NCBI GenBank assembly: GCA_963664395.2
Contig: OY761159.2
Span: forward strand, 640,001 to 704,000
DNA length: 64,000 nt
Direction: 5' to 3'
From: Candidatus Binatia bacterium
Lineage (GTDB): Bacteria; Desulfobacterota; Binatia; Bin18
Within the stretch, counting starts at the first letter, position 1; each line of letters begins with the position of its first letter. The position numbers and the translations under genes were made by a program. Below, piece by piece: positions 3,099 through 19,579 of this stretch. The notes under the pieces are model-generated. The model was not told where the DNA came from, searched no databases, and was given only the letters and a program-made list of their open reading frames with translations.

Positions 3099-4730
3099 TT
3101 ACAGCCATGCAGGGTCTTGATATACTCCAAACACCTCACGGTACACATCGGAGATTTCACCAATCGTACAGTAGGCTTTGACGGCATCGATCAAGACTGG
3201 CATTAAGTTCTGCCCGTTGCGTGCCGCCGCGTGCACTCGACCCAGGTTTTCCGCTACTAAGGCACTATCACGCTCTTGTTTGACCTGCTTGACCTGGGCA
3301 ACCTGGCTACGCTCAACCTCCGGATTAATCTTGAGGGTTTCCATCGGTCGTCCTGCTTCGACCACGTGCGAATTTACCCCAACGATAACCTTTTCTTTGG
3401 CATCCAGCTGTTGCTGATAGCGATAGGCCGCATCTGCGATTTCCTTTTGTGGAAAGCCGATATTGATCGCTCGGATAATACCGCCGAGTTCGTCAATCCG
3501 GTCGATATAGGCGAACGCCTCTTTTTCCATACGGTCCGTCAGGGCTTCGATGGCCCAACTGCCGCCCAGCGGATCAACGAAGTTGGTGACTCCGCTCTCT
3601 TCCGCAATAATTTGCTGGGTCCGCAGCGCGACCGTGACTGATTCTTCAGTTGGGAGGGCCAGGGTCTCGTCCATGGAATTGGTATGCAGCGACTGGGTGC
3701 CACCCAGGACGCCCGCCAGGGCCTGAATGGCCACCCGCACGACGTTGTTGACCGGTTGCTGGGCAGTCAGGCTGACACCGGCCGTCTGACAATGCGTCCG
3801 CAACAGCAGCGAACGGGGATTCTTTGCACCAAAGCGCTCCTTCATGATCTTGGCCCACATCCGGCGGGCCGCTCGCAGTTTGGCAATTTCTTCAAAAAAG
3901 TCATTATGGATATCAAAGAAAAAGGATAACCGCGGGGCAAACTCGTCAACATCGAGCCCGCGTTCTATCCCGGCTTGGACATAGCCAATGCCGTCGGCCA
4001 AGGTGAAGGCCAATTCCTGTATCGCAGTCGAGCCGGCTTCGCGGATGTGATAGCCCGAAATTGAGACGGCGTGCCAACGCGGTACCTCCTTGGCACAAAA
4101 TTCAATCATGTCGGTGACAATACGGACGGCTGGTTCGGGCGGGCAAATCCACTCTTTCTGGGCGATATACTCCTTGAGCATATCGTTCTGGATCGTCCCG
4201 CTGATCTGACTGCGTGGGATGCCCTGTTTATCGGCAACCGCAATATACATGGCGAGTAAAATACTGGCCGTGCAGTTCACGGTCATCGAGGTGGAGACTT
4301 CATCGAGCGGAATATCCTGGAACAAGCGCTCTATGTCTTGTATGGTCGAGACCGACACACCTTCACGACCAACCTCGCCCAGCGAGCGCGCATGGTCGGC
4401 GTCATAGCCCATCAGCACCGGCATATCAAAGGCGGTTGACAGGCCGGTTTGGCCCTCGGACAGCAGCAGCTTAAAGCGTTTATTCGTATCCTCGGGCGTC
4501 CCAAACCCGGCGAACTGACGCATGGTCCAGTAGCGACCCCGATACATACTCGGGTAGACCCCACGGGTGTAAGGGTATTCCCCCGGATAGCCTATCCCTT
4601 CGAGGTTGGAGCCGTTGAGATCGTCCGGCGTATAGACGGGCTCAATCTCCATATCGGATATGGTAGAAAATCGCTGCGAACGTTCCTCCTGTTGAGGATA
4701 TTTCTCATTCAACCACTCTTGCTTATTCAT
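3099..4730 (-). CDS. icmA: Acyl-CoA mutase large subunit, isobutyryl-CoA mutase type
   Basis: [49 protein letters not shown]. Start placed at MNKQ (4730), which has a GGAGG RBS. Confidence 0.85.
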
Positions 4731-4854
4731 GCTTCCTCCGAAAGAACCAACTGTCTCTCCAGCGTATTCGCTGTACGTCCCAAGTCCTTTTGGGAGCAAC
4801 AAATTTTACGTTACATAGCACGACCAACACACCCGGAATAGGGGCATGTCCGTC

Positions 4855-5637
4855 TTATTTTCCAGCAAACTTCGCCGCTCGTTTTTCAAGAAACGCGGCC
4901 ATCCCTTCGGCCTTGTCCTGCGTCGCAAATGTCAACCCAAAAGCCTCGGTTTCAAAACGACAGCCATTGACAATATCCATATCAATCCCGGCATTAATGG
5001 CGGTCTTTGCCTGCTGAATGGCAATGGGTGGTTTTGTCGCCAGCTTATGGGCGAGGGCTGTGGCCGCATTCAAACACTCGGCCACAGGAACGACTCGATT
5101 GGCCAAGCCATAGCGAACCGCCGCTTGTGCATCAATCATATCGCCAGAGTAGATCAGTTCCCGGGCCAGCGGCAGCCCGATACGACGCGCTAAGCGCTGT
5201 GTGCCGCCAAAGCCGGGGATGACACCCAGATTAATTTCAGGCTGACCGAACTTGGCGGTATCCGCGGCAATAATCATGTCACAGGCCAAGGCGAGTTCTA
5301 GGCCGCCACCCAGAGCAAAGCCATTGACTGCGGCAATCACGGGAATGGGCATTTCCTCAAGCGTCCGGGCCACCCGGAGCCCCAGTGAAGCAAAGGCTTT
5401 TCCCTCCAGGGGGGACATCGACACCATCGCTGATATATCTGCTCCTGCAACAAAAGCTCGATCGCCCGCGCCGGTAATGACAAGACAGCGCAGCGTGGCA
5501 TCCTGCTTTACCGCGTCCAAGCAGCCGGCAATCTCACCCAGGGTTACTGGGTTGAGCGCATTCAGGCTCTTGGGACGGTTCACCCTCAGGATGCCAATCG
5601 CATCTTCTTTTTCAAACACAATGTTTTCATATGCCAT
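4855..5637 (-). CDS. Enoyl-CoA hydratase (crotonase)
   Basis: AFVAGADI, GFALGGGLELA, FGQPEINLGVIPGFGGTQRL; both catalytic Glu present. Confidence 0.92.
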   Translation of the reverse strand: MAYENIVFEKEDAIGILRVNRPKSLNALNPVTLGEIAGCLDAVKQDATLRCLVITGAGDRAFVAGADISAMVSMSPLEGKAFASLGLRVARTLEEMPIPVIAAVNGFALGGGLELALACDMIIAADTAKFGQPEINLGVIPGFGGTQRLARRIGLPLARELIYSGDMIDAQAAVRYGLANRVVPVAECLNAATALAHKLATKPPIAIQQAKTAINAGIDMDIVNGCRFETEAFGLTFATQDKAEGMAAFLEKRAAKFAGK

Positions 5638-5638
5638 A

Positions 5639-6595
5639 TCAGTACTCCGGTTGCTCCTCAAAGTGGTGAAAGGTGTTGAGAAAGCGAATGGTCCGGCTCT
5701 TTGAGCGCATCACAACCGAATGCGACTCGCCTCCCCCGGGAAAAAACCGGACCCCACGGAGATAGCTCCCGGTTGTCACCCCGGTTGCGGCAAAGACGAC
5801 ACTGCCTTGGGCGAGTTCTTCGGTCGTATATTTTTTATGGATATCCTCCACTCCGCTCTCCCGTAGCTGGTCAATTTCTCCCGCGCTCCCCGGCTGGAAG
5901 CGGGCCTGAATCTCTCCGCCCAAACACCGCAGGGCCGCTGCGGCTAAAATACCTTGCGCGGCGCGTCCCGTGCCAACCAAAAGATCGAGTCCGGACTCCT
6001 CCCGCGTGGTGGCTAAGGCCGCAGACAGGTCGCCATCACTAATCAGGGTGACATGCACGTTAATGTCACGCAGTTCGCGCAGCAACTTGGCATGCCGGGG
6101 CCGGTCGAGCATGACCACGCGCAGGTTTTGCGGTTTGACCCCTTTCACTGCTGCGAGAGCGGCAAGATTGTCGACCATCGGCTTATCCAGATCAATCACC
6201 CCACGGCCCCACGGCCCCACCGCAATCTTCTCCATGTACACATCAGCGGGACAGCGGAGAAAACCACCCTCTTCAGCAACAGCAATGGCTACGATCGCAT
6301 TCGGCGCGCCCAGGGCGCAGGTGGTTGCCCCTTCAAGCGCATCGACAACCACCTCAAGGACGGGCCCCCGCCCGGTCCCGAGGCCTTCGTCGACATACAG
6401 CATGGGAACCGAGCCTTCATCTCCTTCGCCTAAGACGAGGTGGCCGCTGAACTCGATATGAGGGAACAGCCGGTGCATGGCCTCCACAGCCGCGGCGTCG
6501 GCCACCGCTTCATCTCCCCGCCCCATGTGGGAGGCTGCGGCTAAAGCGGCCGCGTCCGTCACACGAACGAATTCAAGCGCCAAGTTCCTATCCAT
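5639..6595 (-). CDS. glpX: Class II fructose-1,6-bisphosphatase homolog with divergent active-site motifs
   Basis: MDRNLALEFVRVT, YMEKIAVG, DRPRH, SDGD, ATGVT.G..LRGV, HSVVMRSKS. Confidence 0.85.
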   Translation of the reverse strand: MDRNLALEFVRVTDAAALAAASHMGRGDEAVADAAAVEAMHRLFPHIEFSGHLVLGEGDEGSVPMLYVDEGLGTGRGPVLEVVVDALEGATTCALGAPNAIVAIAVAEEGGFLRCPADVYMEKIAVGPWGRGVIDLDKPMVDNLAALAAVKGVKPQNLRVVMLDRPRHAKLLRELRDINVHVTLISDGDLSAALATTREESGLDLLVGTGRAAQGILAAAALRCLGGEIQARFQPGSAGEIDQLRESGVEDIHKKYTTEELAQGSVVFAATGVTTGSYLRGVRFFPGGGESHSVVMRSKSRTIRFLNTFHHFEEQPEY

Positions 6596-6622
6596 GCCAA
6601 ATCTCTTTGCTTCTCCCGATTC

Positions 6623-7852
6623 CTACACTAAGGCCTGCACCTCTCCGCGAATCACGTGCTCCATCAAACGCCACGCCTCAGCAACAAACACGTTCGTCGC
6701 TTTGGCACACGGTTCGTTATATCCTACAGGAGACTCTTCCGTACCGTCATGAGACGAGAGAACCGCGAAAGGCACAGGGTCGGACGAATGCGTCTTAATC
6801 GCGACGGGCGTGGCATGGTCAGGCATCAGTAAGATGGTCCACTCCGGGAAGGCGTCCAGACCATTCAGAATAGTCCCGACAACTTTCTCATCAAAATCCT
6901 CAAGCGCTTGGACCTTTTTATCGGCCGCCCCCATATGGCCGGCTTCGTCCGTTGCCTCAACATGCAGGAAGAGGAAATCCTTGTCACGCAGGGCGGCCAA
7001 ACCATATTCGGCTTTGCCGAGATAATTCGTGTCAAGAAAGCCGGTCGCTCCGGGCACATTGATCACCTCGAGCCCGGCGAGTATGCCAAGACCCCGCACC
7101 AGATCAACCGCGGAAATGACCGAACCGCTCAGACCAAAGCGTTCGGCGATCGTCGGGACGGCAGGACGGCGGCCTTGTCCCCACAGCCAGATCGAGGAGA
7201 CCGGCTTATGCCCCGCAGCCTGACGCCTGGCGTTGACCGGATGCCGGACGCATATCTCCTGGGCGCGCCGCATCAGCGAACATAGTTGGTCGCCACCATC
7301 TCCCTGGGGCCAGTAGCCCTGTACGGACCGGCCAGTAATATCGTGGGGTGGCGTGGTGTCCATTTTTTCCTTGCCCCCGTGCCAGACCAGCAGGTGCCGA
7401 TAGCTCACGCCAGGATAAAAGGAAAACTCACCGCCGCCCAACTCGCTCTGCATCGTCCCAATCAACTCCGCCGCGTCTGCGCTGGGGATGTGGCCGGCCG
7501 CAAAGTCGAGCATGGTTTCGGTTCCATCCGCGGCGCGACCCAAGGTCACCAGATTGCACCGAAACGCAATATCCGCCGGTCCCAGCTCCACGCCCATACT
7601 GGCCGCTTCAATGGGCGAACGTCCGGTATGGTATTGACGTGGGTCATAGCCCAGCAGACTCATGGTTCCGACATCGCTGCCTGAGGGATAGCCCTCGGGA
7701 ATCGTCTGGGTGAGGCCAAAGATACCGCGGGACGCAAGGCGGTCCATATGCGGCGTATGCGCGTACTCAAGAGGCGTTTTCCCGCCGAGTTCATCGACCG
7801 GCCAGTCCGCCATGCCATCACCTTGGAGAATGATATATTTCATACGTCTCAC
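6623..7852 (-). CDS. apgM: Cofactor-independent phosphoglycerate mutase, ApgM type (proposed homoserine-kinase-like clade)
   Basis: [45 protein letters not shown]. Confidence 0.88.
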
Positions 7853-9264
7853 CCATCTGAAAATTCGTGCACGCGGGGTGCCTGCTTTTGCTCCAGCACA
7901 CCAAAAATCGCATCGCGTGCGCTTTGATAATCGGCCGGCGATTCAATCGGCTTGTTTGCGGAATGCGCTGCCACCCCACGCAAACGCCCCTCATGGTAGC
8001 GACGTTTGAAGTCGATAAACTTGAGCCCATGTGCGGTGGATATCACAACGACACGTTCCTGTGATTGGATCTGCCCGGCGCGCACGAGTTTCCGCAGGAC
8101 GGCCAGAGCAACCCCAGTGTGCGGACAATTGAACAGCCCGGTCAAATCTGCCAATGCAGACGCTTCGGCCAACTCGGCTTCGCTGGCCTGCTCTACTATA
8201 CTATCGAACATCTGCAGGACCCGAATGGCTTTATGCACACTGACCGGGTCACCGATCTGAATGGCTGATGCCAAGGTCTTTTTGGCTTTGACCGGACGGT
8301 ATTTTTCAAAGCCTGTGGCAAAACTCTTGTACAAAGGATTTGCGCGTTCTGCCTGGGCACAGACGAGACGGGGCAGGCGGTCAATCAGACCAAGCTCCTG
8401 CATCAGCAGGAATCCACGCCCGATAGCCGTCACGTTGCCGAGATTTCCTCCGGGGACGATCACGACATCGGGGACTTCCCAATCAAACTGCTGAACAATT
8501 TCAATCGAGATCGTCTTTTGCCCCTCAAGCCGGAGACTGTTCATCGAGTTGGCCAGATAGATATTTTCCTTCGTACACAGCTCTCGGACGACCCGCATAC
8601 AGCCGTCAAAGTCGGTATCGAGCGACAGGGTCAGCGCCCCATTTGCCATGGGCTGAATGAGTTGGGCCGTAGACACCCGATTGCGGGGCAGAATCACAAT
8701 GGCGGGGATACCGGCCGCGGCGCAGTAAGCGGCGAGTGCGGCTGACGTATCGCCGGTTGAGGCGCACGCCACTGCGGGAATTGACACGCCATCCGCAATC
8801 ATTTGCTTTACCATAGAGACGAGCACAGTCATGCCCAGGTCCTTAAATGACCCGGTGTGGGAGTTTCCGCACTGTTTGACCCACAGCTCGTCAATACCGA
8901 TGTGTCGTCCGAGCCGCTCCGCCCAAAAAAGATTAGTCCCCCCCTCATACGTGGAAACAATATTCTCGTCATCAATGGCCGGACAAACCATTTCCTTCTT
9001 GCCCCACACACCGCTGCCATACGGGTAGAGCGTTCGTCGGTAGCGCTCGTCAAACAAATGCCGCCACTCCTGGGGCGAACGCATTTTGAGCGCGGTAACA
9101 TCGTGATACACATCCAGCAGCCCTCCACACGTCGGGCAATAGTACAGGATCTCGTTAAGCGGATGTTCACCTGGGCAGCCGGACGCACAGCCAAACCAGG
9201 CCCGAAACGGGGAAGGGGTCGGGGCCGTCAGAGGAAGAGAGTCTCCCAGCGCAGCGTGTGTCAT
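7849..9264 (-). CDS. thrC: Threonine synthase (plant-like form)
   Basis: [14 protein letters not shown] lysine, [25 protein letters not shown]; start placed at MTHAA. Confidence 0.92.
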
Positions 9265-9304
9265 AGTTGTCTCTGACCGGTTCTTTCCATTCTTGTACGT
9301 TTCG

Positions 9305-10621
9305 CTAGCCAAGGCTCTCTTCAATGCGGATGTACACCGATTTCCCGTGAACGATAGGTAATTGGTCAACCAACGTCATAGCCGCCTTCAAATTCCGTTC
9401 AGGTGCGGCATGCGTCCGCATGACCAAAGGTACGGTATTATCGCCTTCACTCCGGCCGCGCTGAATGACCGAGGCAATACTAATGTCCTGGTCGCCTAAA
9501 ATACCGCTAATCTGTGTGAGCACGCCAGGACGGTCAACAGCCATGAAGCGCAGATAATACTCACTGACCAGCTCATCCATGGGCCGGACAGCCGCCGGCT
9601 TCAGCTCTGTCCAGGCACACCCAAGCGGGGGCGGGGGCTGCTGATGCTTCGTCTGCGCCCGCGCACTGTCAACAACGTCAGACAGAACTGCCGCCGCGGT
9701 AGGCAAACTCCCCGCTCCTTGTCCAAATTGGAGGGAAGAGCCCAGAGCGTCCCCTTGCGTAAAGATGGCATTATACGCGCCGCCCACACCCGCCAAAAGA
9801 CTGCCCTGCGGAATCATGGTCGGATGGACGCGGGCTTCAAGCACGTCACCTTCTTCCTTGGCAATCGCCAGGAGCTTGATCACATAGCCGAACTCGCGCG
9901 CAAATGCGATGTCGATCTGGTCGAGCTGCCGAATCCCTTCGGTGTACACGGCATCGACCGGCACCCGTACGCCAAAGGCGAGCATGATGAGTAGCGTCAG
10001 CTTCTGAGCAGCGTCAATGCCATCAACATCCATACGGGGATCAGCTTCCGCCAAGCCCAGCTCTTGGGCTCTGTGTAAGACAGAGGCAAAATCGGCGCCG
10101 TCCTCACGCATCGTTGACAGGATGTAATTACACGTCCCATTCACAATCCCGAACAGTGCCTTGTTGCGGTCCGCGACAAAGCCTTCCCGCAGCGTCCGAA
10201 TAATAGGGATGCCGCCAGCCACGCTGGCTTCAAACCCCAAGCGTACCCCATGCGCTTCCGCTGCGGAAAAAATCTCATCGCCATGCAGAGCCAGCAGAGC
10301 TTTGTTTGCCGTCACAACGGCTTTGCCCCGTGCCATAGCTTCTAAAACGAGCGACCGGGCGGGGTCGGTTCCGCCAATGAGTTCCAGAACAATATCAACC
10401 TCACCATCATTCACGACGCTCCAAGGGTCAGCCGATAAACGGACACCAGAGAGAGGCGGGTGCGGTTTTGTGTCGATGCTCCGACTCGCAACGTGCACGA
10501 GTTGCAGGGGAACACCTATTTTTCGAGCAAACGAATCGCGCTGCCGGTCCAGGAGTTGGACAACCCCGGAACCAACCGTCCCCAACCCAATGAGACCAAG
10601 TTTTACACCCTCCCTCGCCAT
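9305..10621 (-). CDS. hom: Homoserine dehydrogenase with C-terminal ACT domain
   Basis: [51 protein letters not shown]. Confidence 0.95.
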
Positions 10622-11859
10622 TATACCGCTCGAAGCTTTTTCCCCGCCGGCTCGGCCTGTCCTGAGCCAGGTCGAAGGGCCGGAACACTTACGCCACCAA
10701 AGGCTTTTCGGATGCCGCGGACCGCCTGCCGGGTCCGATGCTCATTCTCAATCAACGCGAAGCGGACGTAGTCTTCTCCATATGGCCCAAAACCAATTCC
10801 TGGGGACACCGCGACTTTGGCTTCCGTCAGGAGAAATTCGGCAAAGGCCATGGAGCCCATGGCCCGCAGTGGCTCTGGGATTTGCGCCCAGACAAACATC
10901 GTGCCTTTGGGTTTGGGGATATGCCAGCCCACCCGCTCCAGGCCGTCAATCAGGACATCGCGGCGGAGACGATAGCGCTGGCGCATGTCTTCCACGCAGT
11001 CCTGGGGGCCGTTCAAGGCCTGAATCGCGGCGATTTGAATGGGCTGAAAAATACCGTAGTCGAAATAGCTTTTGAGCCGGCCCAATGCCATGATCGCTTC
11101 GGGATTGCCGCACGCAAAGCCCACCCGCCAGCCCGGCATGTCATACGATTTCGACAAGGTAAAGAACTCAACACCTATCTCTTTTGCGCCGGGCACCTGC
11201 AGGAAGCTCGGCGGCGTATAGCCGTCAAAAAAGAGGTCGGCATAGGCAAAATCGTGAATGACAAACAACTTATGCTCACGGGCGAATTCCACCACCCGCG
11301 TAAAAAATTCGAGATCCACAACGGCCGTCGTCGGATTATGCGGGAAGCACAGCAGCAATACCTTTGGCCGCGGCCAACACTGCCGAACCGTTTCTTGAAG
11401 GGAGGCAAAGAAATCTTCCCCTGGTCGGAGCGGGACGACCCGTAAATCGGCATTGGCCATGACAATCGAATACTGGTGGATGGGATAGGTCGGACTCGGG
11501 CAGATGGCCACATCACCGGGGCCGAGAATCGACAGCGCCAAGTGGGACAGACCCTCTTTCGACCCGATTGTCACAATGGATTCGGACTCGGGATCAAGCT
11601 CCACCTCAAAGAGGCGTTTATACCAGTCGCAAATCGCCAGGCGTAGCTTGTATAGGCCACGTGAAGTTGAATAGCGATGATTCTGGGGCTTTGCCGCAGC
11701 CTCAACGAGCTTGTCCACCACGTGTTGCGGAGACGGGTGGTCGGGATTGCCCATCCCGAAATCGACAATATCCTCACCCGCCCAGCGTGCCTCCATTTTC
11801 ATCTTGTCCAGGGTGGCAAACAGATAGGGCGGAAGCCGTTTAATACGTGGAAATTCCAT
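10621..11859 (-). CDS. alaC: PLP-dependent aminotransferase class I/II (AlaC-like)
   Basis: [55 protein letters not shown]. Confidence 0.88.
10655..10679. repeat. REP-like short element inside the alaC 3' end
   Basis: GCCTGTCCTGAGCCAGGTCGAAGGG resembles the widespread CCTGAGC-N-GTCGAAGG intergenic repeat. Confidence 0.5.
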
Positions 11860-12017
11860 GTTGTCTCACCTCTGGGGAGACAGGCCGTTCAGCCCTTCTC
11901 CGGCAGGACCTCCATTGCTGCTAAGGATATAGGGGATTTACCGAAACCGGTCAAACCGCTGGGAGTGCAGTTTCGGCCTCGACAGCCCACAGGCGGCGGG
12001 CAGGAATCCCCTCGAAT

Positions 12018-12182
12018 TTATTTCTTTCCGGCGGTACCTTGATTCGGCGGGTTGGTGGGTGGTTTTTTTGGAGACTGCTCGGTCGCCACAGGTTGGTAGC
12101 CGCGAGAGAAATCGACCCGAAGGTCGTTTTTCCTCTGTTTGTTGGACGGACGCGGAGCCGCAGATGTGTTATTCTTGCGCAT
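12018..12182 (-). CDS. Unannotated 54-aa Pro/Lys-rich micropeptide
   Basis: AGGAGG-aaatca-ATG; MRKNNTSAAPRPSNKQRKNDLRVDFSRGYQPVATEQSPKKPPTNPPNQGTAGKK*; overlaps the upstream gene's stop by 14 nt. Confidence 0.65.
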   Translation of the reverse strand: MRKNNTSAAPRPSNKQRKNDLRVDFSRGYQPVATEQSPKKPPTNPPNQGTAGKK

Positions 12183-12786
12183 TGATTTCCTCCTGAGGGT
12201 GGTAAGGCCAAAACTCTATTGTTCTGATTTCTTCGGCAGCAATGAGCACACCTCTCTCACTTTTCGGCGGCGTCCACGTACCATCTTCAGCAATATCATA
12301 AATCCATTGGATGAACATATCGCGCTCATCTGAATTAGAAGAAACGAAAGATTGTACACCGTAGAAGCCTGCAAAACGGGTCCCATCTTTCAGTGTCACA
12401 AGAACCCACTGTTCTGCCATACCGTTGAACTTCCAGTCCCAGGCGGTCGGTATGGCGTGGGCAGGATAGAGACCAAACCGATTAAGGAAACGGCGAACAA
12501 GGTCTTTCTGGATATTGATCCCCAAAAGTAGGCCGAGAAAAATAGGGCCAACAAAAACAACGCCGAACCAAACCAGTCTTGAATCCTGTATCAACGCGGG
12601 ATCAACGACAGGGAGAACCAGAGCGCCATAGATGACTGAGATGGTGAGATAGGAGAGAAGCGAAGCCTTATTCTCGGACGGAATTCTTCCGGTTATGAAC
12701 TGCGAGCGTACTGATAACGCGATAAAGCCAGGGACAATGAAAACCAGAATAAGGTAGAGACTATTAACTGACAGTAATTTAGTCAC
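12169..12786 (-). CDS. DUF6338-like membrane protein
   Basis: Three hydrophobic helices starting with FIVPGFI, then TAWDWKF..WVLVTLKDGTRFAG..S..ERDMFI..GVLI..EIRTIEF; visibly more AT-rich than neighbours; AAGGAG RBS. Confidence 0.75.
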   Translation of the reverse strand: MTKLLSVNSLYLILVFIVPGFIALSVRSQFITGRIPSENKASLLSYLTISVIYGALVLPVVDPALIQDSRLVWFGVVFVGPIFLGLLLGINIQKDLVRRFLNRFGLYPAHAIPTAWDWKFNGMAEQWVLVTLKDGTRFAGFYGVQSFVSSNSDERDMFIQWIYDIAEDGTWTPPKSERGVLIAAEEIRTIEFWPYHPQEEINAQE

Positions 12787-12890
12787 GGCTCAACCTCTCC
12801 TTACCTGCCAGACAGTACGGCTACGAAGCTGATCGCTTTCTGACCATCAGCTATGCCCGCTTGTCGTGTCAAGATTCTACTGCTCACTCG

Positions 12891-15800
12891 TCACCCCTCC
12901 ACTCCCGCGTCCGGCTCGCCCGCCCCCAACGCATTCATCCACGCCAAACACAAGTCACGCGAGCGGTAGCGACCATACGTCGCCATTTCCTGACGTTCGA
13001 CAATCGGGAAAGTAGAATAGATGTAGCGCACGTCATCACGGTCAGTGACGCCGTACAGATGAAAAAACACCGCGTCGAGTTTGGCGCGCAGGTGCAACCG
13101 CCGTTCCTCGTCCCACACGAACGGCGGCTTGACGTTGCCCAACTCATCCACATGGCCCAGGTCGCGGGCGAAGGGGGCCATGTCGTGGGCCGTATAGGTG
13201 AGTTCCAGTACGGCCTCACGGACGATCTCACCGGCGGTCTTGGGGCCGAAACCCACGCTCTCGAAAGTTGCTGCCGGCACGACAGGCATTTGCTCCAGAA
13301 CGTACCATGTAAAATGCGTTGCCGGCACTTTTTGCCGAGCCACGAAGTCGAACACCACGGCGTTCAGGTTCGCAACGAGCAGGCTCGCAAGCACAGACCG
13401 CCGGGAGCTGTCAGCGTCTATCAGGAATACGGGCAACGTATTTCCCGCGCCGGCGCGTGGGATGAGCGCTGAGATCATGGTGCGCATGTTGGTGGCGGCG
13501 GTAATGTCCTTGAAGGCGATGGCCCACTCGTCAACCCACTTCCATGTCCCGGAATCTTCTTTCACATAGTAGCGCGACTTTGGAGAACGCTCGGGGTCTC
13601 GCTTCTCCGAATCAGGAATGGATTCCTGCTGACCGGGCCGAAAAAGATTCTCCTCATTGATGGTGATATCAGCCGCTCGGTGGTCAAATCTCTGCACCAT
13701 CTTGCCCTCGTACAGCGGCAACCATTCCCCGCTCGGACTGTCGAAGCGGTTGCCGCCAATGGGCCACGCGCCCTCCCCTTCTTCCAACTCTTCGCGCGTG
13801 CGGAACAGATAAGAATCATTCGTCATGTGGAACATCGTGGCGTACTTCACCGGCCACGCCTTGACTTCCTCGTCGCCGGAACGACCCACCAACACCGGCA
13901 GGCGTTCGTAGATCGCGGTCGTCAGCTTGGCGTCACGGCTTGTGCGGAAGATGGGCGCGGTGCCGGTGTTCGGGTTGACACGGACGAAGTCCTCGGCGGT
14001 CAGCGGGAAACATCGCTCCGGGTCGTTGAGTTCGGAGACATCCTGCAAAAAGAACGCGCATTGGGCAGGCTCGCCGAACGACGTCGGGCTGGCCACAATC
14101 GCACAGAACTTGAAGCGGCTGTCCACGTCCGGGAAGAACGGCGGGGCATTGAACTTGGTCCTGCGGTTCTCGAAGTCATACAACGCTCGCAACCGACCTT
14201 CCGTTGCCACGCCCTGAAAAAACGGCGCCGCGGTCTTGTCCGATGCAATGCCGGACGGCACCAGCAACCCGACCATGCCCGTCGGCTTGACCAGCGTCAT
14301 GGCCCGCTCGACAAACAGTGAGTACAGATTCACGTCGCCATGCGACAACAAAGGATAGTCGCCACAGGCGCGCGCCATGCGCGTAGCGTTGGCGGCCCGT
14401 TCGCTCGCCTTGGCAAAATCGTGGCCGAGCGGGTCGCCGTCCGTCTCTAACGCGGCGATCAGGCGCTTGCGATCCGTAGCGCGTTGGGCCAGGGCAATCT
14501 CGGGGCGGCGGGCGGCGAACCATTCGACCTGTTGCAGCTTAATGCGATCCCAGGGCGGGTTACCGATGACCGCGTCAAAGCCGCCGTCCGGCTCCGTATT
14601 TTTCAGATTCGTCCATACGCCGGGAAACGCAGCCTGCCAGTTCAGAAAGCGCTCTTCGGCAATGAGACTGCGCGCCCGTTTCAGCAGTTCGGCGAACCGT
14701 TCGCCATCGGGTGTAGCAGTCGAGACGGCGCACCGCCCCTGAGCAATATTGAGCGGATCGCCCAAGCGGCTCTCGAAAAAAGCGTGCAGCGCAGCCGTGT
14801 CATCACGGTCTTGGATGTCCAGCCAGTCCAGGGCGTGCAGCAGCGACAGAAACGCGTCGAGCGGCGCGGTCATGGCCTCCACCTCGGCGAAGGTTTGCGC
14901 GGACTGCCGCGCCTCGGCAATCTCGGCGTCCGTCAGGTGCTCAACGACCTGCATGGCGTTGGCCGCGTCCGCGGCGCGGTTCACCGGCTCGTGGATGAAC
15001 AGCCCATGGCCACCGGCACTCATCTTCTCTATGCCCTGACGCGCCCAGCAGCCGAACAGACTGTTACCGCAACGCAAGTGGTGGTCCAGAAAGCTCAGCG
15101 GCGCACCCACGGTGAAAGTGTGCAGCCACAGCGACACCTTGGCCAGTTCGACGGCCATCGGGTTTTTGTCCACGCCGTAGACGCAGCGCTTGAGCACCAT
15201 GCGGCGAATGACGTGACGGTCGTCAAGCTGTTCCGCGTCGATGGTCCAGCCGCGCTCGGCGGCATTATTCAGGATGGTGGTCCGAATGGCGTCAATCCGC
15301 TTGGTCAACGGCGAAACATAGTCCTCGACCGTGGCCTGAGCCTCGGCAATCGCGGCAATCACGCTGTCGGCCAGATAGTCCACCAGGCTGACCAGAAAAT
15401 GCCCGGAGCCCATGGCCGGGTCGCAGATTTTCAGTTCCAGGAGCCGCTCAGCAGGATCGAGCCGCTGCAGCTCACCCTGTGTGAGGCCGGCGTCCGAACG
15501 GCGCTTATCACGCTTTGCCGCCCGTTCGGAAAATGCTGTCAGGCGCGCCCGGACCAGCGGGCCGACCGTCTCCTTGAGAATCACGTTCACAAGATCGTCC
15601 GGGGTGTAATAGCTGCCCGAGCCCTTGCGGGCAAACACGTTGGGCCGCACACCGATTGTGTCACCGTCGCGGACGACTTCGTATTCGAGCAGGCGTTCAT
15701 AGATTGAGCCGAGCTGCTGCACGCTCAGGTCGCGGTAGTTGATATAGCGCCGACCTTCTGGTGTCTGCTCAAACGATAGCGCGTCAATCACGTCAGCCAT

Positions 15801-16985
15801 GACCTGATCACCCAGTCGGATGCGGGTCAGCAAGGGCGTGCGCGCCCGGTCAAACAGACCGCCGTTATAGGGCGGCAGGCCGATACTGGCGTCGCCTTGG
15901 TCAACCGCGCGGCACAGATCGTCAACCGTAGACCAATAGCGGCTGGCGTTTTCGGAAAACGTGTCGTTACCGTCCTTACGCCGCCCGACATCACCCCGTA
16001 CTTTTTCGCGCAAACCGTAATCGTCATAGCGGTCGTCCCGCACCGGCAGCAGGTCGCGGTCCTCGGCATACAGGATAAACAGCAGCCGGTAGAGCAGAAT
16101 CAAGGCCGAGTCGCGCACCTCGGACAACAGGGCGTCCGGCGCAGCCGCGGCAATGGCACGGGCCAGGCTGGGAAAGACCTGCTTGAAGACCAGTTCGGAC
16201 AGGTCGGCGGCTACCCGCTCTTCATAGAATCGGCCTTGGGCAAGCGCACGCTGATGCAGGCTGCGCGAGTCCGCGGTGTCCGGGTCGGGCAGAAAGGCAG
16301 CACGGCGAAAAAAGAGCACGAACAGCTTGAGCCAGTGCCGGCGGTCGGCCTCGGACAGCGCGAACAGGCCGTCGTTATGGCCGGACAGACCCAGGGCCGT
16401 CGCCAGGTCGATCTCGAAGAACTGTTCCGACACGGACCGCGCGCCGGCATAGGACAGCCGCCACTTGGCACCGTTGGTGAGAATGCCCCAGCGCAGCGTC
16501 CCGTTCGTCAGGTCATCCACCCGCCGCAGGTAGCGCAGCATCTGGGTTGAGGGCGCGGTCTCCTCGCCCCGCCGGTCGGAGCGCCGGTCGAGCGGGCGTT
16601 GCCAACGCTTGGACTCGACCACGGCCAGGCCGAATGCGTACCGCTTCCATTCCTGCCGGCATCGGTTGGCGCGGGCTTTGGCCTCGTCATCGGCAAATAG
16701 CAGGCCGTCGGGCACATCGTCCCGGCCCTGGGCAGTGAGGTTCTGCTGCCGCAGGCTGGCCGTCCAGCCGAGAGCCCCGAGTACCGGCCAAATCAGATCG
16801 TCCTCGGTCTGGCTCTCGTTGGGGGTGAGGGCCGTCGGGAAGCGCTCGAAGACGGTCCGCAGCGCGCGTTCACATCCGTCCAGCGCTGCGTCGTCAAAAG
16901 CCTGCCAGTCGATCAATTGAGCAACAGATTCCGTCAGAAAATCGTGGGCAAACAGGCTGCCCTGGACGATATCGTTCATATTCAC
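12891..16985 (-). CDS. Type IIG restriction-modification fusion (nuclease + N6-adenine MTase + target recognition domain, Eco57I-like)
   Basis: N-terminal VPDGLLF...VESKRW (PD-D/ExK), LGSIYERLL, GSYYTP, DPAMGSGHFL (motif I), IGNPPW (motif IV). Confidence 0.9.
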   Translation of the reverse strand: MNMNDIVQGSLFAHDFLTESVAQLIDWQAFDDAALDGCERALRTVFERFPTALTPNESQTEDDLIWPVLGALGWTASLRQQNLTAQGRDDVPDGLLFADDEAKARANRCRQEWKRYAFGLAVVESKRWQRPLDRRSDRRGEETAPSTQMLRYLRRVDDLTNGTLRWGILTNGAKWRLSYAGARSVSEQFFEIDLATALGLSGHNDGLFALSEADRRHWLKLFVLFFRRAAFLPDPDTADSRSLHQRALAQGRFYEERVAADLSELVFKQVFPSLARAIAAAAPDALLSEVRDSALILLYRLLFILYAEDRDLLPVRDDRYDDYGLREKVRGDVGRRKDGNDTFSENASRYWSTVDDLCRAVDQGDASIGLPPYNGGLFDRARTPLLTRIRLGDQVMADVIDALSFEQTPEGRRYINYRDLSVQQLGSIYERLLEYEVVRDGDTIGVRPNVFARKGSGSYYTPDDLVNVILKETVGPLVRARLTAFSERAAKRDKRRSDAGLTQGELQRLDPAERLLELKICDPAMGSGHFLVSLVDYLADSVIAAIAEAQATVEDYVSPLTKRIDAIRTTILNNAAERGWTIDAEQLDDRHVIRRMVLKRCVYGVDKNPMAVELAKVSLWLHTFTVGAPLSFLDHHLRCGNSLFGCWARQGIEKMSAGGHGLFIHEPVNRAADAANAMQVVEHLTDAEIAEARQSAQTFAEVEAMTAPLDAFLSLLHALDWLDIQDRDDTAALHAFFESRLGDPLNIAQGRCAVSTATPDGERFAELLKRARSLIAEERFLNWQAAFPGVWTNLKNTEPDGGFDAVIGNPPWDRIKLQQVEWFAARRPEIALAQRATDRKRLIAALETDGDPLGHDFAKASERAANATRMARACGDYPLLSHGDVNLYSLFVERAMTLVKPTGMVGLLVPSGIASDKTAAPFFQGVATEGRLRALYDFENRRTKFNAPPFFPDVDSRFKFCAIVASPTSFGEPAQCAFFLQDVSELNDPERCFPLTAEDFVRVNPNTGTAPIFRTSRDAKLTTAIYERLPVLVGRSGDEEVKAWPVKYATMFHMTNDSYLFRTREELEEGEGAWPIGGNRFDSPSGEWLPLYEGKMVQRFDHRAADITINEENLFRPGQQESIPDSEKRDPERSPKSRYYVKEDSGTWKWVDEWAIAFKDITAATNMRTMISALIPRAGAGNTLPVFLIDADSSRRSVLASLLVANLNAVVFDFVARQKVPATHFTWYVLEQMPVVPAATFESVGFGPKTAGEIVREAVLELTYTAHDMAPFARDLGHVDELGNVKPPFVWDEERRLHLRAKLDAVFFHLYGVTDRDDVRYIYSTFPIVERQEMATYGRYRSRDLCLAWMNALGAGEPDAGVEG

Positions 16986-17047
16986 GCGCCCACGGTCTTT
17001 GTTTCGTTGCGGATTGTGCTTCTGCCCGACAAATTCATTGAGATAAT

Positions 17048-17283
17048 ATGAAAACTATTACTATCACTATTGACGAAACCACGCTGCGGTTCCTTGCTGA
17101 ACTCGCCGTTTCTTTTGCCCGTCGTCAGAGTCGCTCCGCGCTCGTGCGGACACAATTCATGGCTTTGCCGAGCAGCAGCGCCGACGCAAGACCGAGGCGG
17201 ACGAAGACCACCTATTTCACACCAGTCGGAAACGTCTGGCCAGAGAAGCCAAGGCGTTGGTCGCCGAGCAAGCCCGGCCATGA
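17048..17283 (+). pseudogene. Frameshifted ribbon-helix-helix (CopG-like) antitoxin
   Basis: MKTITITIDETTL...SRSALVRT, then after a 1-nt loss near 17152 IHGFAEQQRRRKTEADEDHLFHTSRKRLAREAKALVAEQARP*; ends in an ATGA overlap with an MKRG start. Confidence 0.65.
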
Positions 17284-17329
17284 AGCGTGGCTGTGGGAAA
17301 TGTACGAAAACCGAGCCTCGGCTTCAGGC

Positions 17330-19579
17330 TCAGCCCACCCGAGCCAGCTCAAGCCGCCCGGCCCAGCGGTCTTCGAGTACGGCCCGCAGTCGGCGGGATT
17401 CGGGTGTGGTCAGGTTGGGGTCGCGGGCGAGCCAGGCCAGGGCTTCGTCCCGCGCGGTTTCCAGAATCTTGCTGTCGCGCACGATATTGGCCACGCGGAA
17501 GTCGGGCATCCCGGACTGACGCGTGCCCAGAAATTCACCCGGCCCACGAAACGCCAGGTCGGCTTCGGCAATTTTGAAGCCATCCTCGGTTTCCACCATG
17601 ATCTGAAGACGCCGCCTGGACTCGTCCCCCGGCGCGTACTGTGCCAGCAGCAAACACAATGAGGCGGCTTGCCCGCGTCCGACGCGACCGCGCAACTGAT
17701 GCAACTGCGCCAACCCGAATCGTTCGGCATGTTCAATCACAATGACCGTGGCGTTCGGCACATCAATCCCAACCTCAATGACGGTTGTCGAAACGAGCAA
17801 CTGATGCGCGCCGGTCTTGAAACGCTGCATGGCCGCCTCTTTTTCATCGCCCTTCATGCGGCCATGGACGAGGCCGACCGAATAATCGGCAAAGAAGGTT
17901 TGCGACAACTCTTTAGCCATAGAGGTCGCGGCCTTCAGGTCTAACTTCTCGGATTCCTCAACCAGCGGATAGACCACATAGGCTTGATGGCCCTGATCGA
18001 TCTGTTCCTTGACGAGTCGGTAGGCTTTTTTGCGTTCGCCTTCATGGAACACCCGAGTCGTGATCGGCTTGCGACCGGGCGGGCGTTCATCAAGAGCCAG
18101 GACATCCAGGTCGCCATACATGGTCAGGGCCAGGGTACGTGGGATGGGGGTTGCGGTCAGGAGCAGAATATCGGGATTCACCCCTCGTTTGCGCAAGGCC
18201 ACACGCTGCATCACCCCAAAGCGATGCTGCTCATCAACGATGGCCAAGCCCAAATGCTGAAAGCGCACACCGTCCTGGATCAGGGCATGCGTCCCCACCG
18301 CAATCTCGACCTCGCCGCGTTCCAGGAGACCATAGATCTCCTGTTTCCGTTTCATGCGGGTTTCTCCGGTCAGCAGGGCCATGGAGATGCCGAGCTGCTC
18401 GGCCAGCGGCGTCAGCGTCCGGTAGTGCTGCTCGGCCAGGAGTTCCGTCGGAGCCATGAACGCTACCTGATAGCCGCTGTCGAGCGCGGCCAGGGCCGCA
18501 AAGAAGGCGACAATGGTCTTGCCCGAGCCGACATCCCCCTGCACCAGTCGATTCATGGGGTGAGGCGCGGCCATATCTCGAAAAATCGTCTCAGTCACAC
18601 GCTCTTGGGCCGCGGTCAACCGAAACGGCAAAATGCCATACACCTGCCGGACCAAGGGGCCCGGCACAATGGACAGCCCCTCTTCGCGGACGATGTTGCG
18701 CCGGCGCAGGGCCATGCCGAGTTGCAAATAAAACAGTTCGTCGAACACCACGGCCCGATGCGCCGGAGAGATAGCCTCATTGAGTGCGGCAATCTCAATA
18801 TCGAGCGGGGGAAAATGCAGCTGCCGCAGGGCTTGATTGAGCGGCATCAGGTGCAGGCGCTCACAAATTTCCTGCGGCACGCCGTTGGGGACCTGATCGA
18901 CATGCAGGCTAACGGCACCATGCACGACCCGCCGCATGGCAGCCACCGTCATTTCCGTGGTCTTGTTATAAATGGGCAGGACGCGGGCGGTCTCATCCTC
19001 TTCTTCCATCGGCTCCATGTCCGGGTGGATCATCCACTTGCCGCCCTTCATGCCCTTCTCGACCTTCCCGTACAGGAGGACACGCTGACCAAGTTGATAG
19101 CGTTGCTGAAAATAGCGATGCTGGTGATACCACAGCAGAAAGAGGAAGCCGGTTTCGTCGCGCACAACCGCTTCCAGCACCCAACGACGCCGGCGGGCCA
19201 GAAAGCGACGGCCCATACGGGCGATCTGTCCGGTTATCGCGGTCTCATCTCCAATCTGAAGATCACGGATTTGCTTGATCTCGCGCCGGTCCTGATAGCG
19301 AAACGGAATATGGTACAGCAGGTCTTCGACCGTCTCGATACCCAGCCGGGCCAATTGCTCCGCGCGACGCGGGCCTACGCCTTTGACATACTGCACCGAT
19401 TTTTTGAGCGGTGGCTGGGAGGCGCGAAACGAGCGCGCCGACGAGGAAGGGGGGGCAGCATCCCCTCTCTCTCCCCCCTTGATAAGGGCGGCTGGGGGGG
19501 AGGCCTGGTCAAAGAGCTGGGGAGTTCCCTCTGACGTGCGACTTTTCGACCCTCTGACGTGCGACTTTTCGACAGCCAT
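17330..19579 (-). CDS. recG: ATP-dependent DNA helicase RecG
   Basis: VKGVGP, QGDVGSGKT, MAPTELLAEQH, DEQHRFG, TATPIPRT, QLHQLRGRVGRG, RGPGEFLGTRQSG; start uncertain. Confidence 0.95.
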   Translation of the reverse strand: MAVEKSHVRGSKSRTSEGTPQLFDQASPPAALIKGGERGDAAPPSSSARSFRASQPPLKKSVQYVKGVGPRRAEQLARLGIETVEDLLYHIPFRYQDRREIKQIRDLQIGDETAITGQIARMGRRFLARRRRWVLEAVVRDETGFLFLLWYHQHRYFQQRYQLGQRVLLYGKVEKGMKGGKWMIHPDMEPMEEEDETARVLPIYNKTTEMTVAAMRRVVHGAVSLHVDQVPNGVPQEICERLHLMPLNQALRQLHFPPLDIEIAALNEAISPAHRAVVFDELFYLQLGMALRRRNIVREEGLSIVPGPLVRQVYGILPFRLTAAQERVTETIFRDMAAPHPMNRLVQGDVGSGKTIVAFFAALAALDSGYQVAFMAPTELLAEQHYRTLTPLAEQLGISMALLTGETRMKRKQEIYGLLERGEVEIAVGTHALIQDGVRFQHLGLAIVDEQHRFGVMQRVALRKRGVNPDILLLTATPIPRTLALTMYGDLDVLALDERPPGRKPITTRVFHEGERKKAYRLVKEQIDQGHQAYVVYPLVEESEKLDLKAATSMAKELSQTFFADYSVGLVHGRMKGDEKEAAMQRFKTGAHQLLVSTTVIEVGIDVPNATVIVIEHAERFGLAQLHQLRGRVGRGQAASLCLLLAQYAPGDESRRRLQIMVETEDGFKIAEADLAFRGPGEFLGTRQSGMPDFRVANIVRDSKILETARDEALAWLARDPNLTTPESRRLRAVLEDRWAGRLELARVG
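19461..19501. repeat. REP-like palindrome in the recG 5' region
   Basis: TCCCCTCTCTCTCCCCCTTTGATAAGGGCGGCTGGGGGGGA, CCCCCTT-GAT-AAGGG type hairpin. Confidence 0.45.
19528..19573. repeat. Perfect tandem repeat, 2 x 23 bp
   Basis: CCTCTGACGTGCGACTTTTCGAC twice. Confidence 0.9.

Follow-up and report, generated by a model that had tools for sequence, protein, structure and literature searches.

A predicted overlapping gene for a proline-rich peptide accompanies the putative membrane protein DUF6338 in a mobile cassette

When a short open reading frame (ORF) overlaps the end of a membrane-protein gene, is it a gene in its own right, and if so, what might the two products do together? This question is raised by a locus in a 64,000-nucleotide stretch of the genome of a Candidatus Binatia bacterium (GenBank assembly GCA_963664395.2, contig OY761159.2, positions 640,001 to 704,000 of the forward strand; we call this whole stretch the window, and positions given without a locus label refer to it). 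There, a gene of family DUF6338, predicted to encode three transmembrane (TM) helices, is overlapped by a 54-codon ORF encoding a basic, proline-rich peptide. An earlier inspection based on the letters alone, which we refer to as the sequence-only reading, had singled out these two ORFs and noted the resemblance of the larger product to DUF6338. Both ORFs are indeed found where it placed them, with a 14-nt overlap and an AGGAGG element, and the larger protein matches Pfam PF19865 over its full length (E 6.9e-35; score 120.9, cut-off 26.5 bits; profile positions 3–201 of 205). A profile search of the 5.04-Mb assembly found a single DUF6338 copy. The elements of the two genes are as follows.

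12169..12786, minus strand: DUF6338 gene, 205 aa, GTG start behind AAGGAGAGG (ORF and Pfam PF19865)
12505..12768, minus strand: three predicted TM helices of the DUF6338 protein, residues 7–28, 39–57 and 63–94 (AlphaFold2 model)
12196..12456, minus strand: predicted acidic Sm/LSm-like beta-barrel, residues ~111–197, probably cytoplasmic (fold searches)
12189..12194, minus strand: AGGAGG ribosome-binding site of the small gene, within the last DUF6338 codons (sequence)
12018..12182, minus strand: small gene, 54 aa, ATG start, predicted basic, Pro-rich, disordered peptide with one GYQP and a PPTNPPNQGTAGKK end

The ATG of the small ORF, at 12182–12180, stands 6 nt behind the AGGAGG at 12194–12189, and the TAA of DUF6338 (12171–12169) lies inside the small ORF, whose product ends in ...RGYQPVATEQSPKKPPTNPPNQGTAGKK. 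The 14-nt overlap and the internal ribosome-binding site are the arrangement of a co-transcribed pair of small genes. Metatranscriptome contigs from two studies (four libraries), which give presence rather than transcript level or ends, bridge the junction of the two genes in all four runs (12035–12635, 12044–12340, 11991–12224 and 12038–12263); since such libraries can hold DNA, this is a weak sign of co-transcription. Three of the four contig variants within the small ORF sit on third codon positions. The contigs of three runs stop at 12035–12044, 17–26 nt short of the small-ORF stop codon, and the fourth reaches 11991; only one run covers part of 11888–11981, in its first bin and at low depth. 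The contig ends at 12035–12044 may reflect strain variation or assembly rather than a transcript end.

We compared the locus by blastn with 40 relatives. Most genus genomes match only the start of the housekeeping aminotransferase gene, which is located downstream of the small ORF, and ~125 bp upstream of that start, up to position ~11985. Since genus conservation ends there, the small ORF is part of a variable islet, and a derivation from the native region upstream of the aminotransferase was rejected. Two genomes, G007 and G001, carry the DUF6338 gene at ~80% DNA identity, and the blastn match ends at the DUF6338 stop codon. Both nevertheless have an overlapping ORF, of 55 or 51 aa, with the same layout (MSKN..., GYQP and SP.KPP.NPP..G..GKK). 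The protein encoded by the small ORF has been kept here, while its DNA has diverged.

The sequence-only reading had suggested looking for a small ORF with a GYQP..PP.G pattern beside DUF6338 homologues, and such an ORF turned out to be present across phyla, on plasmids and on a phage-plasmid. We aligned 20 homologues and took 56 loci from a one-genome-per-species collection; by record titles and tree labels, these represent seven phyla (Binatota, Pseudomonadota, Chloroflexota, Thermodesulfobacteriota, Acidobacteriota, Planctomycetota and Rhodothermota). Inspecting the ORFs near every DUF6338 stop codon already revealed the peptide at almost all loci. A profile made from 36 peptides was searched against 9,874 six-frame ORFs from the fetched loci and the window, where 36 matches are the profile's own seeds by construction and the remainder are independent recoveries. 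A peptide ORF on the same strand adjoins or overlaps the 3′ end of DUF6338 in 53 of the 56 loci (E ≤ 1e-3). At each of the other three loci the situation differs: the peptide ORF lies 845 nt downstream of DUF6338 (L049), or adjoins it at E 0.003 (L063), or is lacking beside a DUF6338 gene that is itself truncated (L065). Further profile matches at E ≤ 1e-3 were confined to a second copy in L032 and two orphans discussed below, and the best unrelated ORF reached E 0.024. The second L032 ORF (4666..4974, plus strand), in an alphaproteobacterial metagenome-assembled genome, lies 1.9 kb upstream of DUF6338; its C-terminal half is almost identical to that of the adjoining peptide, and it may represent a second cassette, in tandem or decayed. 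The window's ORF matches a profile built from the other loci at E 2.3e-11. Among 115,113 open frames (25–400 aa) of its own genome, the peptide profile finds only this ORF (E 2.2e-12), with no other frame at E ≤ 10.

Patterns of substitution and translation signals agree with these searches. The ratio of non-synonymous to synonymous substitution rates (dN/dS) is 0.06–0.33 in 11 of 14 close pairs of peptide genes, a sign of purifying selection, and two pairs are synonymously saturated (proportion of synonymous differences, pS, 0.79–0.80), with proportions of non-synonymous differences (pN) of 0.045 and 0.27. A Shine–Dalgarno core (GGAG, GAGG or AGGA) is found at −18 to −4 of 37 of 41 peptide starts, compared with 11% of random positions; these starts were picked by N-terminal alignment, which perhaps biases the count slightly. 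We also considered whether the peptide could be a C-terminal extension of DUF6338 reached by frameshifting or read-through. This was rejected, as the starts are offset by anything between −86 and +10 nt and fall in differing frames, most peptide genes have their own Shine–Dalgarno sequence, and those of L026, L043 and L083 do not overlap DUF6338. Four longer database forms (P0104, P0257, P0281 and P0347) were likewise rejected as fusions: they carry 'EGLPA', which is RGYQP read in the other frame, and are thus run-ons by gene callers. Across phyla, DUF6338 proteins end in a conserved stretch (P-Q/E-E-x-x-N-x-Q-E-stop) of residues. As their codons also spell the Shine–Dalgarno sequence and the ATG and N-terminus (M-S/R-K-N) of the peptide gene, this constraint may stem from the second gene.

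Mobile replicons carry the pair as well. The four plasmid loci that we inspected, from Sphingomonas, Fluviibacter, Acinetobacter baumannii and A. ursingii, all have one or two peptide ORFs, some annotated as hypothetical, at DUF6338 identities of 24–42%. In the sole phage match, the Klebsiella phage-plasmid pJN2-26, an annotated ORF of 43 aa contains GYQP twice, ends in PPPKKP and precedes a hairpin. In AT-rich replicons the motif loosens to GY(T/S)P, and profile scores are weak (E 0.13 and 0.35 in L068, E 0.0098 in L069). Tandem peptide genes occur in L014, L051, L066 and L068. Divergent DUF6338 paralogues of the genus are followed by a 51-aa ORF ending in PPPPPPPRPKK (L072 and L078), by a Ser/Gly/Pro-rich ORF (L079) or by no obvious ORF (L074); of the loci L072–L079, these four were inspected. 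From these comparisons, we regard the small ORF as a true gene, translationally coupled to DUF6338 through the overlap and the internal ribosome-binding site.

The peptide matches no Pfam or NCBIfam family, and its best ESM Atlas score, 0.76, is below a useful level; a database search with the profile gave 143 clusters, all unnamed or hypothetical. DUF6338 itself is already catalogued, as a family without a function, whereas the peptide family is unnamed and has no Pfam or NCBIfam model. We found no description of the DUF6338–peptide pair in the literature searched, outside of which lay subscription journals and bioRxiv supplements. The only DUF6338 paper found there concerns Pseudomonas stutzeri, in which a DUF6338 gene is followed by SEP1, SEP5 and SEP2, three Pro-rich small proteins of 36, 47 and 41 aa (Anal Chem 2023, PMC10433244). 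These were detected by digest-free mass spectrometry with 44–114 peptide-spectrum matches (PSMs) and 98–100% coverage, and the authors considered them not conserved beyond P. stutzeri and possible de novo genes (PMC10433244). As described there, the P. stutzeri peptides are like that of the window in lying behind DUF6338 on the same strand and in being basic and Pro-rich with PPPPKK-type tails. They differ in forming a tandem of three without GYQP, and the two peptide types are likened here by description, not by homology.

To characterize the larger protein, we modelled the window's DUF6338 with AlphaFold2 from an alignment of 73 sequences (model m85ba5ffe8414; predicted local distance difference test, pLDDT, 71; predicted template modelling score, pTM, 0.45), together with a distant homologue, P0355, a natural long form (model md5e3e256c039; pLDDT 86, pTM 0.62). 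The first model has long helices at residues 7–28, 39–57 and 63–94, short helices at 96–103 and 115–120 and strands between 126 and 194, and the second has the same architecture. The third TM helix is Gly-rich, with conserved G80, P81, G85, G89, N91 and Q93. It is followed by a conserved 30-residue linker (H..PTAWDWKF), and the barrel bears a conserved loop insert (SF.SS.P.ERD).

The sequence-only reading had also proposed that the soluble tail has the strand pattern of an Sm/Hfq- or SH3-like barrel, and fold comparison of the two models points to the former. In both models the domain consists of an N-terminal helix and five strongly bent antiparallel strands, as in Sm proteins. Every top row among the Foldseek matches listed from the PDB is an Sm, LSm or Gemin6/7 protein, at E 3e-3 to 2e-2 for both models and with target TM-scores of up to 0.71 for Sm-like matches; neither model gave a Foldseek match at E ≤ 1e-3. 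VIA-align placed Sm, LSm or Hfq proteins in 48 of its top 50 rows (Z 8.1–5.6), the best with Z 8.1 and a root-mean-square deviation of 2.6 Å over 71 residues (model residues 114–193), and Hfq with Z 7.4. Since a Z near 8 is only moderate, we claim a likeness of fold and not homology. Sequence-profile searches of the PDB with DUF6338 gave nothing significant (best, Spindle-E at E 0.2), and PADLOC returned only Csx27/tm_4 (E 0.017–0.035 over the first TM helix), which we treated as chance. DUF6338 is thus modelled as a three-TM inner-membrane protein with an acidic Sm/LSm-like barrel. It shares the N-terminal helix and five-stranded bent beta-sheet of Sm, LSm and Hfq proteins, but differs from them in its fusion to three TM helices, its acidity and its SF.SS.P.ERD insert.

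Properties of the two products suggest how they might fit together. The positively charged loops after the first and third TM helices point to an outside N-terminus and a barrel in the cytoplasm, where the leaderless peptide would also be. The Sm-like domain has a net charge of −9 in the window's protein (median −9, range −14 to −3 among 73 homologues), including the invariant acidic residues D117, E154, D156, E186 and E191, which could form a surface for the peptide partner. The peptides are ~50–65 aa long, 18% Pro and free of hydrophobic segments, with a median LIVFMWC content of 9% and, in contrast to the barrel, a median net charge of +8 (n=37). GYQP-type motifs of the form G-(Y/H)-(Q/R/K/T/S)-P occur once in 18 peptides, twice in 13, three times in 5 and not at all in 1, and the peptides have a PPxNPPNQGxxGKK-type end. 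P0355 (259 aa) is an apparent in-frame fusion of DUF6338 and peptide, with the tail RRGYQ...NPPKGG, and is the sole one apart from a possible second, P0312. Its tail is modelled as one long helix (residues 210–245) and is uninformative on docking. Complex predictions for the Sm-like domain (residues 95–205) with the peptide gave scores of 0.12 and 0.20, with the mark at 0.32, and favour neither binding nor its absence. As the sequence-only reading proposed, the barrel may form oligomers and bind the peptide, and the pair might have a toxic role of the abortive infection (Abi) or toxin–antitoxin (TA) kind.

If the two genes form a unit, they might be expected to move as one. DUF6338 is patchily distributed: the search found it in eight of 24 other genus genomes but nowhere among 16 genomes representing other genera of the class. 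A tree of 59 DUF6338 sequences, built by a quick maximum-likelihood search and leaving out the truncated L065, places the Binatia proteins beside those of Caldilineaceae (Chloroflexota), which indicates horizontal transfer. The family comprises ~2,484 clusters at 50% identity (E ≤ 1e-3). The DUF6338 profile also has matches in Haloferax volcanii, a control genome, so the family extends to archaea.

We surveyed the neighbours of the 56 loci by assigning Pfam domains to two greedily chosen ORFs per side, each 90 aa or longer, and ran PADLOC on 25 selected proteins. All tallies are raw counts, in which related genomes are not independent samples. Type IIG R-M (restriction–modification) genes, of the Eco57I or MmeI type, were found in nine loci and at four separate tree positions (those of the Binatia clade, L031, L033 and L057). 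In six loci (L038, L039, L041, L042, L043 and L045), genes for a ThsB-type TIR protein (PF08937; PADLOC ThsB 2.7e-12) and a caspase-like Peptidase_C14 protein (PF00656; PADLOC caspase 1e-17) directly precede DUF6338, and the genes of these operons either adjoin or share 1 nt. All six loci belong to a single clade, with strong support, that spans Rhodobacterales, Rhizobiaceae and Planctomycetaceae, so the four genes travel as a set. Their peptides read (E/D)RGYQP and end in xRG(S/G)GGKK, a suggestive Arg pattern that, since the loci are one clade, counts as one phylogenetic observation. On the A. ursingii plasmid, Prok-E2, ThiF and Prok-JAB genes precede the cassette, and the JAB gene overlaps DUF6338. 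Other defence-type neighbours include an HmaA helicase (E 2.5e-165), HEC-01A ATPases, SIR2, PIN, HNH and BrnA proteins and DNA methyltransferases. The sequence-only reading had proposed a check for enrichment in defence islands. Here, defence-type genes lie within two ORFs in 23 of the 56 loci, and transposase or partition genes only in five more, but this total of 28 is a raw count with no matched background. The cassette is thus mobile and has repeatedly been appended 3′ of defence modules (type IIG R-M, TIR plus caspase-like protease, and E2/E1/JAB).

In the window, the type IIG neighbour recognized by the sequence-only reading is a 1364-aa gene 104 nt upstream of DUF6338 on the same strand (Eco57I, 2.2e-20; PADLOC REase_MTase_IIG, 2.2e-64). 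Two further features lie around the pair.

12891..16985, minus strand: type IIG R-M gene, 1364 aa (Pfam and PADLOC)
11986..12017, no strand: low-coordinate edge of the variable islet, where the core sequence upstream of the aminotransferase stops at ~11985 (genus comparison)

The AT-richness that had been ascribed to the pair is clear for DUF6338 (GC 0.468, GC3 0.48) and only mild for the small ORF (0.539, against 0.578 for the window); the R-M and aminotransferase genes have GC contents of 0.625 and 0.567. The ORFs from 6000 to 19000 are R-M, RecG and housekeeping genes, with no type IV Thoeris TIR–caspase operon among them. Scanning 11700–13100 for promoters and terminators gave counts no higher than in shuffled sequence, the sole hairpin lying inside the peptide ORF. 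The ~345 bp from the R-M start to the RecG stop (16986–17329) have a GC content of 0.53–0.54, below both flanks, and only short unassigned ORFs; the islet may have its other edge there.

Within the genus, the peptide gene is also found without its partner. In G004, it is kept beside a 95-nt 3′ remnant of DUF6338, with an unrelated 412-aa ORF upstream, and differs from that of the window by six synonymous and two non-synonymous changes. In G012 (L082), a type IIG R-M gene precedes the slot of DUF6338, where a pentapeptide-repeat protein of 480 aa is encoded instead (3302..4744, plus strand; membrane region at its C-terminus), and the peptide gene persists at 4813..4980 (plus strand). These orphans look like antitoxin-like retention. 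The islet varies in other ways too. The first ~26 aminotransferase codons and their upstream region are duplicated beside it in G007 (L004 663..905, minus strand), with extra copies in G001 and none seen in the window; such duplicates may hint at cassette exchange without a recombinase. The gap between peptide and aminotransferase in G007 contains a BrnA-antitoxin-like ORF and a DUF6364 ORF (L011 6615..7130, plus strand, and 7423..7719, minus strand; L004), suggesting that small TA-type genes accumulate at the islet.

What, then, might the pair do? Our tentative answer, which we hold to be somewhat short of probable, is that DUF6338 is a membrane effector restrained by a labile peptide partner, in the manner of Abi or TA systems. 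The Sm barrels would assemble into a six- to seven-membered ring, as other Sm barrels do, and this ring would gather 18–21 TM helices into a channel-like assembly reminiscent of MscS. The basic peptide would bind the acidic ring and keep the assembly inactive, as an antitoxin or a plug. It could be lost by general proteolysis once infection halts its synthesis or, alternatively, be removed by a dedicated upstream protease in the TIR–caspase and JAB operons. The freed membrane protein would then permeabilize or depolarize the cell, an abortive infection that would back up the neighbouring defence enzyme. The opposite charges of barrel and peptide, the P0355 fusion, the tandem peptide genes, the retention of orphans and the modular defence neighbours all speak for such an arrangement.

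Several known systems offer parallels. As in type II TA and Abi pairs, we see a small, overlapping two-gene module that is patchily distributed, mobile, found among TA genes on plasmids and represented by orphan antitoxin-like copies; unlike in type II TA systems, the candidate toxin is a putative membrane protein with an Sm barrel. MscS has three TM helices, of which the third is Gly-rich, followed by an Sm-like beta domain, and is a heptamer. The likeness of DUF6338 to it is architectural (three TM helices, a Gly-rich third helix and an Sm-like domain), but DUF6338 has the 30-residue H..PTAWDWKF linker and no C-terminal alpha/beta domain. Csx28 has a pore function; like it, Csx27 (both from type VI-B CRISPR), the Macro-TM protein from type II Thoeris as well as ThsF, DUF6338 is a short multi-TM protein beside a defence enzyme, but it has no homology to them, no recognizable domain for binding a nucleotide signal, and a peptide gene of its own. 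ThsF (Thoeris type V, DUF2270), a protein with three TM helices, is predicted to assemble as a homo-oligomeric channel of circular shape (bioRxiv 10.64898/2025.12.03.692087).

A further parallel, for the operons with a protease, is the bacterial gasdermin. Gasdermin is a pore former held by a short inhibitory peptide, which is removed by a caspase-like protease encoded in the operon. DUF6338 differs in that the putative inhibitory peptide is a separate gene rather than a C-terminal tail, and it has no gasdermin fold. Type IV Thoeris is described as a two-gene system of TIR and caspase proteins whose protease cleaves after Arg with small flanking residues (bioRxiv 10.1101/2024.10.24.620036), and the accessible text of that preprint mentions no membrane gene. 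The Arg-bearing peptides in the six TIR–caspase loci can be set beside this preference, as far as it is described there. One could go further and suppose that DUF6338 and its GYQP peptide are a widespread but so far overlooked plug-in killing module of prokaryotic immunity, an Sm-ring pore shut by a peptide encoded in trans and opened by turnover or by a caspase-like or JAB protease. As such, the pair would be a counterpart of the gasdermin tail, independently recruited by TIR–caspase, E2/E1/JAB and type IIG R-M systems. In this extended form, we consider the proposal doubtful.

A number of observations weigh against a peptide-restrained effector. In half of the loci (28 of 56), there is no recognizable defence or mobile gene within two ORFs, and many of these cassettes lie among housekeeping genes. 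The GC contents of DUF6338 and the R-M gene differ (0.47 and 0.63), so their adjacency may reflect an island neighbourhood rather than a shared function. The orphan peptides could equally fit a peptide with its own function. One pair of peptide genes, L034 and L035, has a dN/dS of 1.48 (three synonymous and 13 non-synonymous changes). In classic type II TA systems, the antitoxin is usually the first gene and has a DNA-binding domain; here the order is reversed, and the low-complexity peptide, with no Pfam or NCBIfam domain, has no such domain. Kinship with MscS finds no support, as DUF6338 has no MS_channel (PF00924) match in Pfam at E ≤ 1 and MscS is absent from the top 50 VIA-align rows. Finally, toxicity, pore formation, oligomerization and peptide binding are steps that we infer.

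A non-toxic pair is one alternative. The membrane-bound Sm ring and peptide might be an adaptor or regulator that tethers or tunes the neighbouring defence enzyme where phage DNA enters, or that senses perturbation of the envelope. EDC3- and Scd6-type LSm domains are peptide-binding adaptors, and entries of this type are among the fold matches listed. The cassette, moreover, always lies 3′ of the larger enzymes on the same strand, with overlapping genes in the TIR–caspase loci. The caspase of type IV Thoeris already suffices alone as the effector of a two-gene system (bioRxiv 10.1101/2024.10.24.620036). However, many loci have a lone cassette between housekeeping genes, the composition of DUF6338 differs from that of the R-M gene, and the upstream partners are mutually unrelated, which makes a specific adaptor interface hard to picture; we judge this explanation unlikely. 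It is quite improbable, in our view, that the peptide is the actual product, a Pro-rich antimicrobial or signal, with DUF6338 as its transporter or immunity protein. Its composition is like that of Pro-rich antimicrobial peptides, an idea also raised by the P. stutzeri authors, whose peptides were abundant (44–114 PSMs; PMC10433244), and several loci have tandem peptide genes, as bacteriocin loci do. Yet the peptides have no signal or leader and no hydrophobic stretch (LIVFMWC, median 9%), the neighbour survey found no conserved modifying or processing enzyme beside the cassette, and a three-TM protein with a cytoplasmic Sm barrel is no known type of exporter. The P. stutzeri peptides were, furthermore, detected in a study that left membrane fractions outside its scope (PMC10433244).

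A housekeeping role in RNA biology, in which a membrane-tethered Sm/Hfq-like RNA binder and a basic peptide would act as an RNA chaperone, for example in localized translation, would fit the closest folds (Sm, LSm and Hfq) and the charge of the peptide. The barrel is acidic in all 73 homologues (−14 to −3), which is unfavourable for RNA binding, and the patchy, horizontally transferred distribution that includes plasmids, the single copy and the lack of conserved RNA-processing neighbours also make such a role very improbable. Lastly, the small ORF might be no gene at all but a frame left open by chance in GC-rich DNA, or a 3′ element that is not translated: other frames over the stretch are also open, and the ORF is below usual annotation cut-offs and belongs to no Pfam or NCBIfam family. 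This is scarcely credible, however, given a protein kept over seven phyla despite DNA divergence, including in AT-rich Acinetobacter and Klebsiella replicons, with dN/dS well below 1 in most pairs, a conserved ribosome-binding site and no off-target profile matches; the analogous P. stutzeri peptides were seen by mass spectrometry (PMC10433244). The likelihood left over by the explanations listed here, the restrained effector included, falls to other functions that we do not name.

The pairing of DUF6338 with a peptide gene provides a first handle on a DUF family of ~2,500 clusters (at 50% identity). It also defines an unnamed family of micropeptides that annotation pipelines have mostly missed or left as 'hypothetical'. 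That the pairing is family-wide runs contrary to the published view of the P. stutzeri peptides as species-specific de novo genes (PMC10433244), with the caveat that the two peptide types are likened by description. For the Sm fold, a barrel anchored in the membrane would be an unusual use. If DUF6338 is an effector, type IV Thoeris-like, ubiquitin-like and R-M defence loci would gain a further module, and the cassette could serve as a simple model, with just two genes, of membrane killing gated by a peptide.

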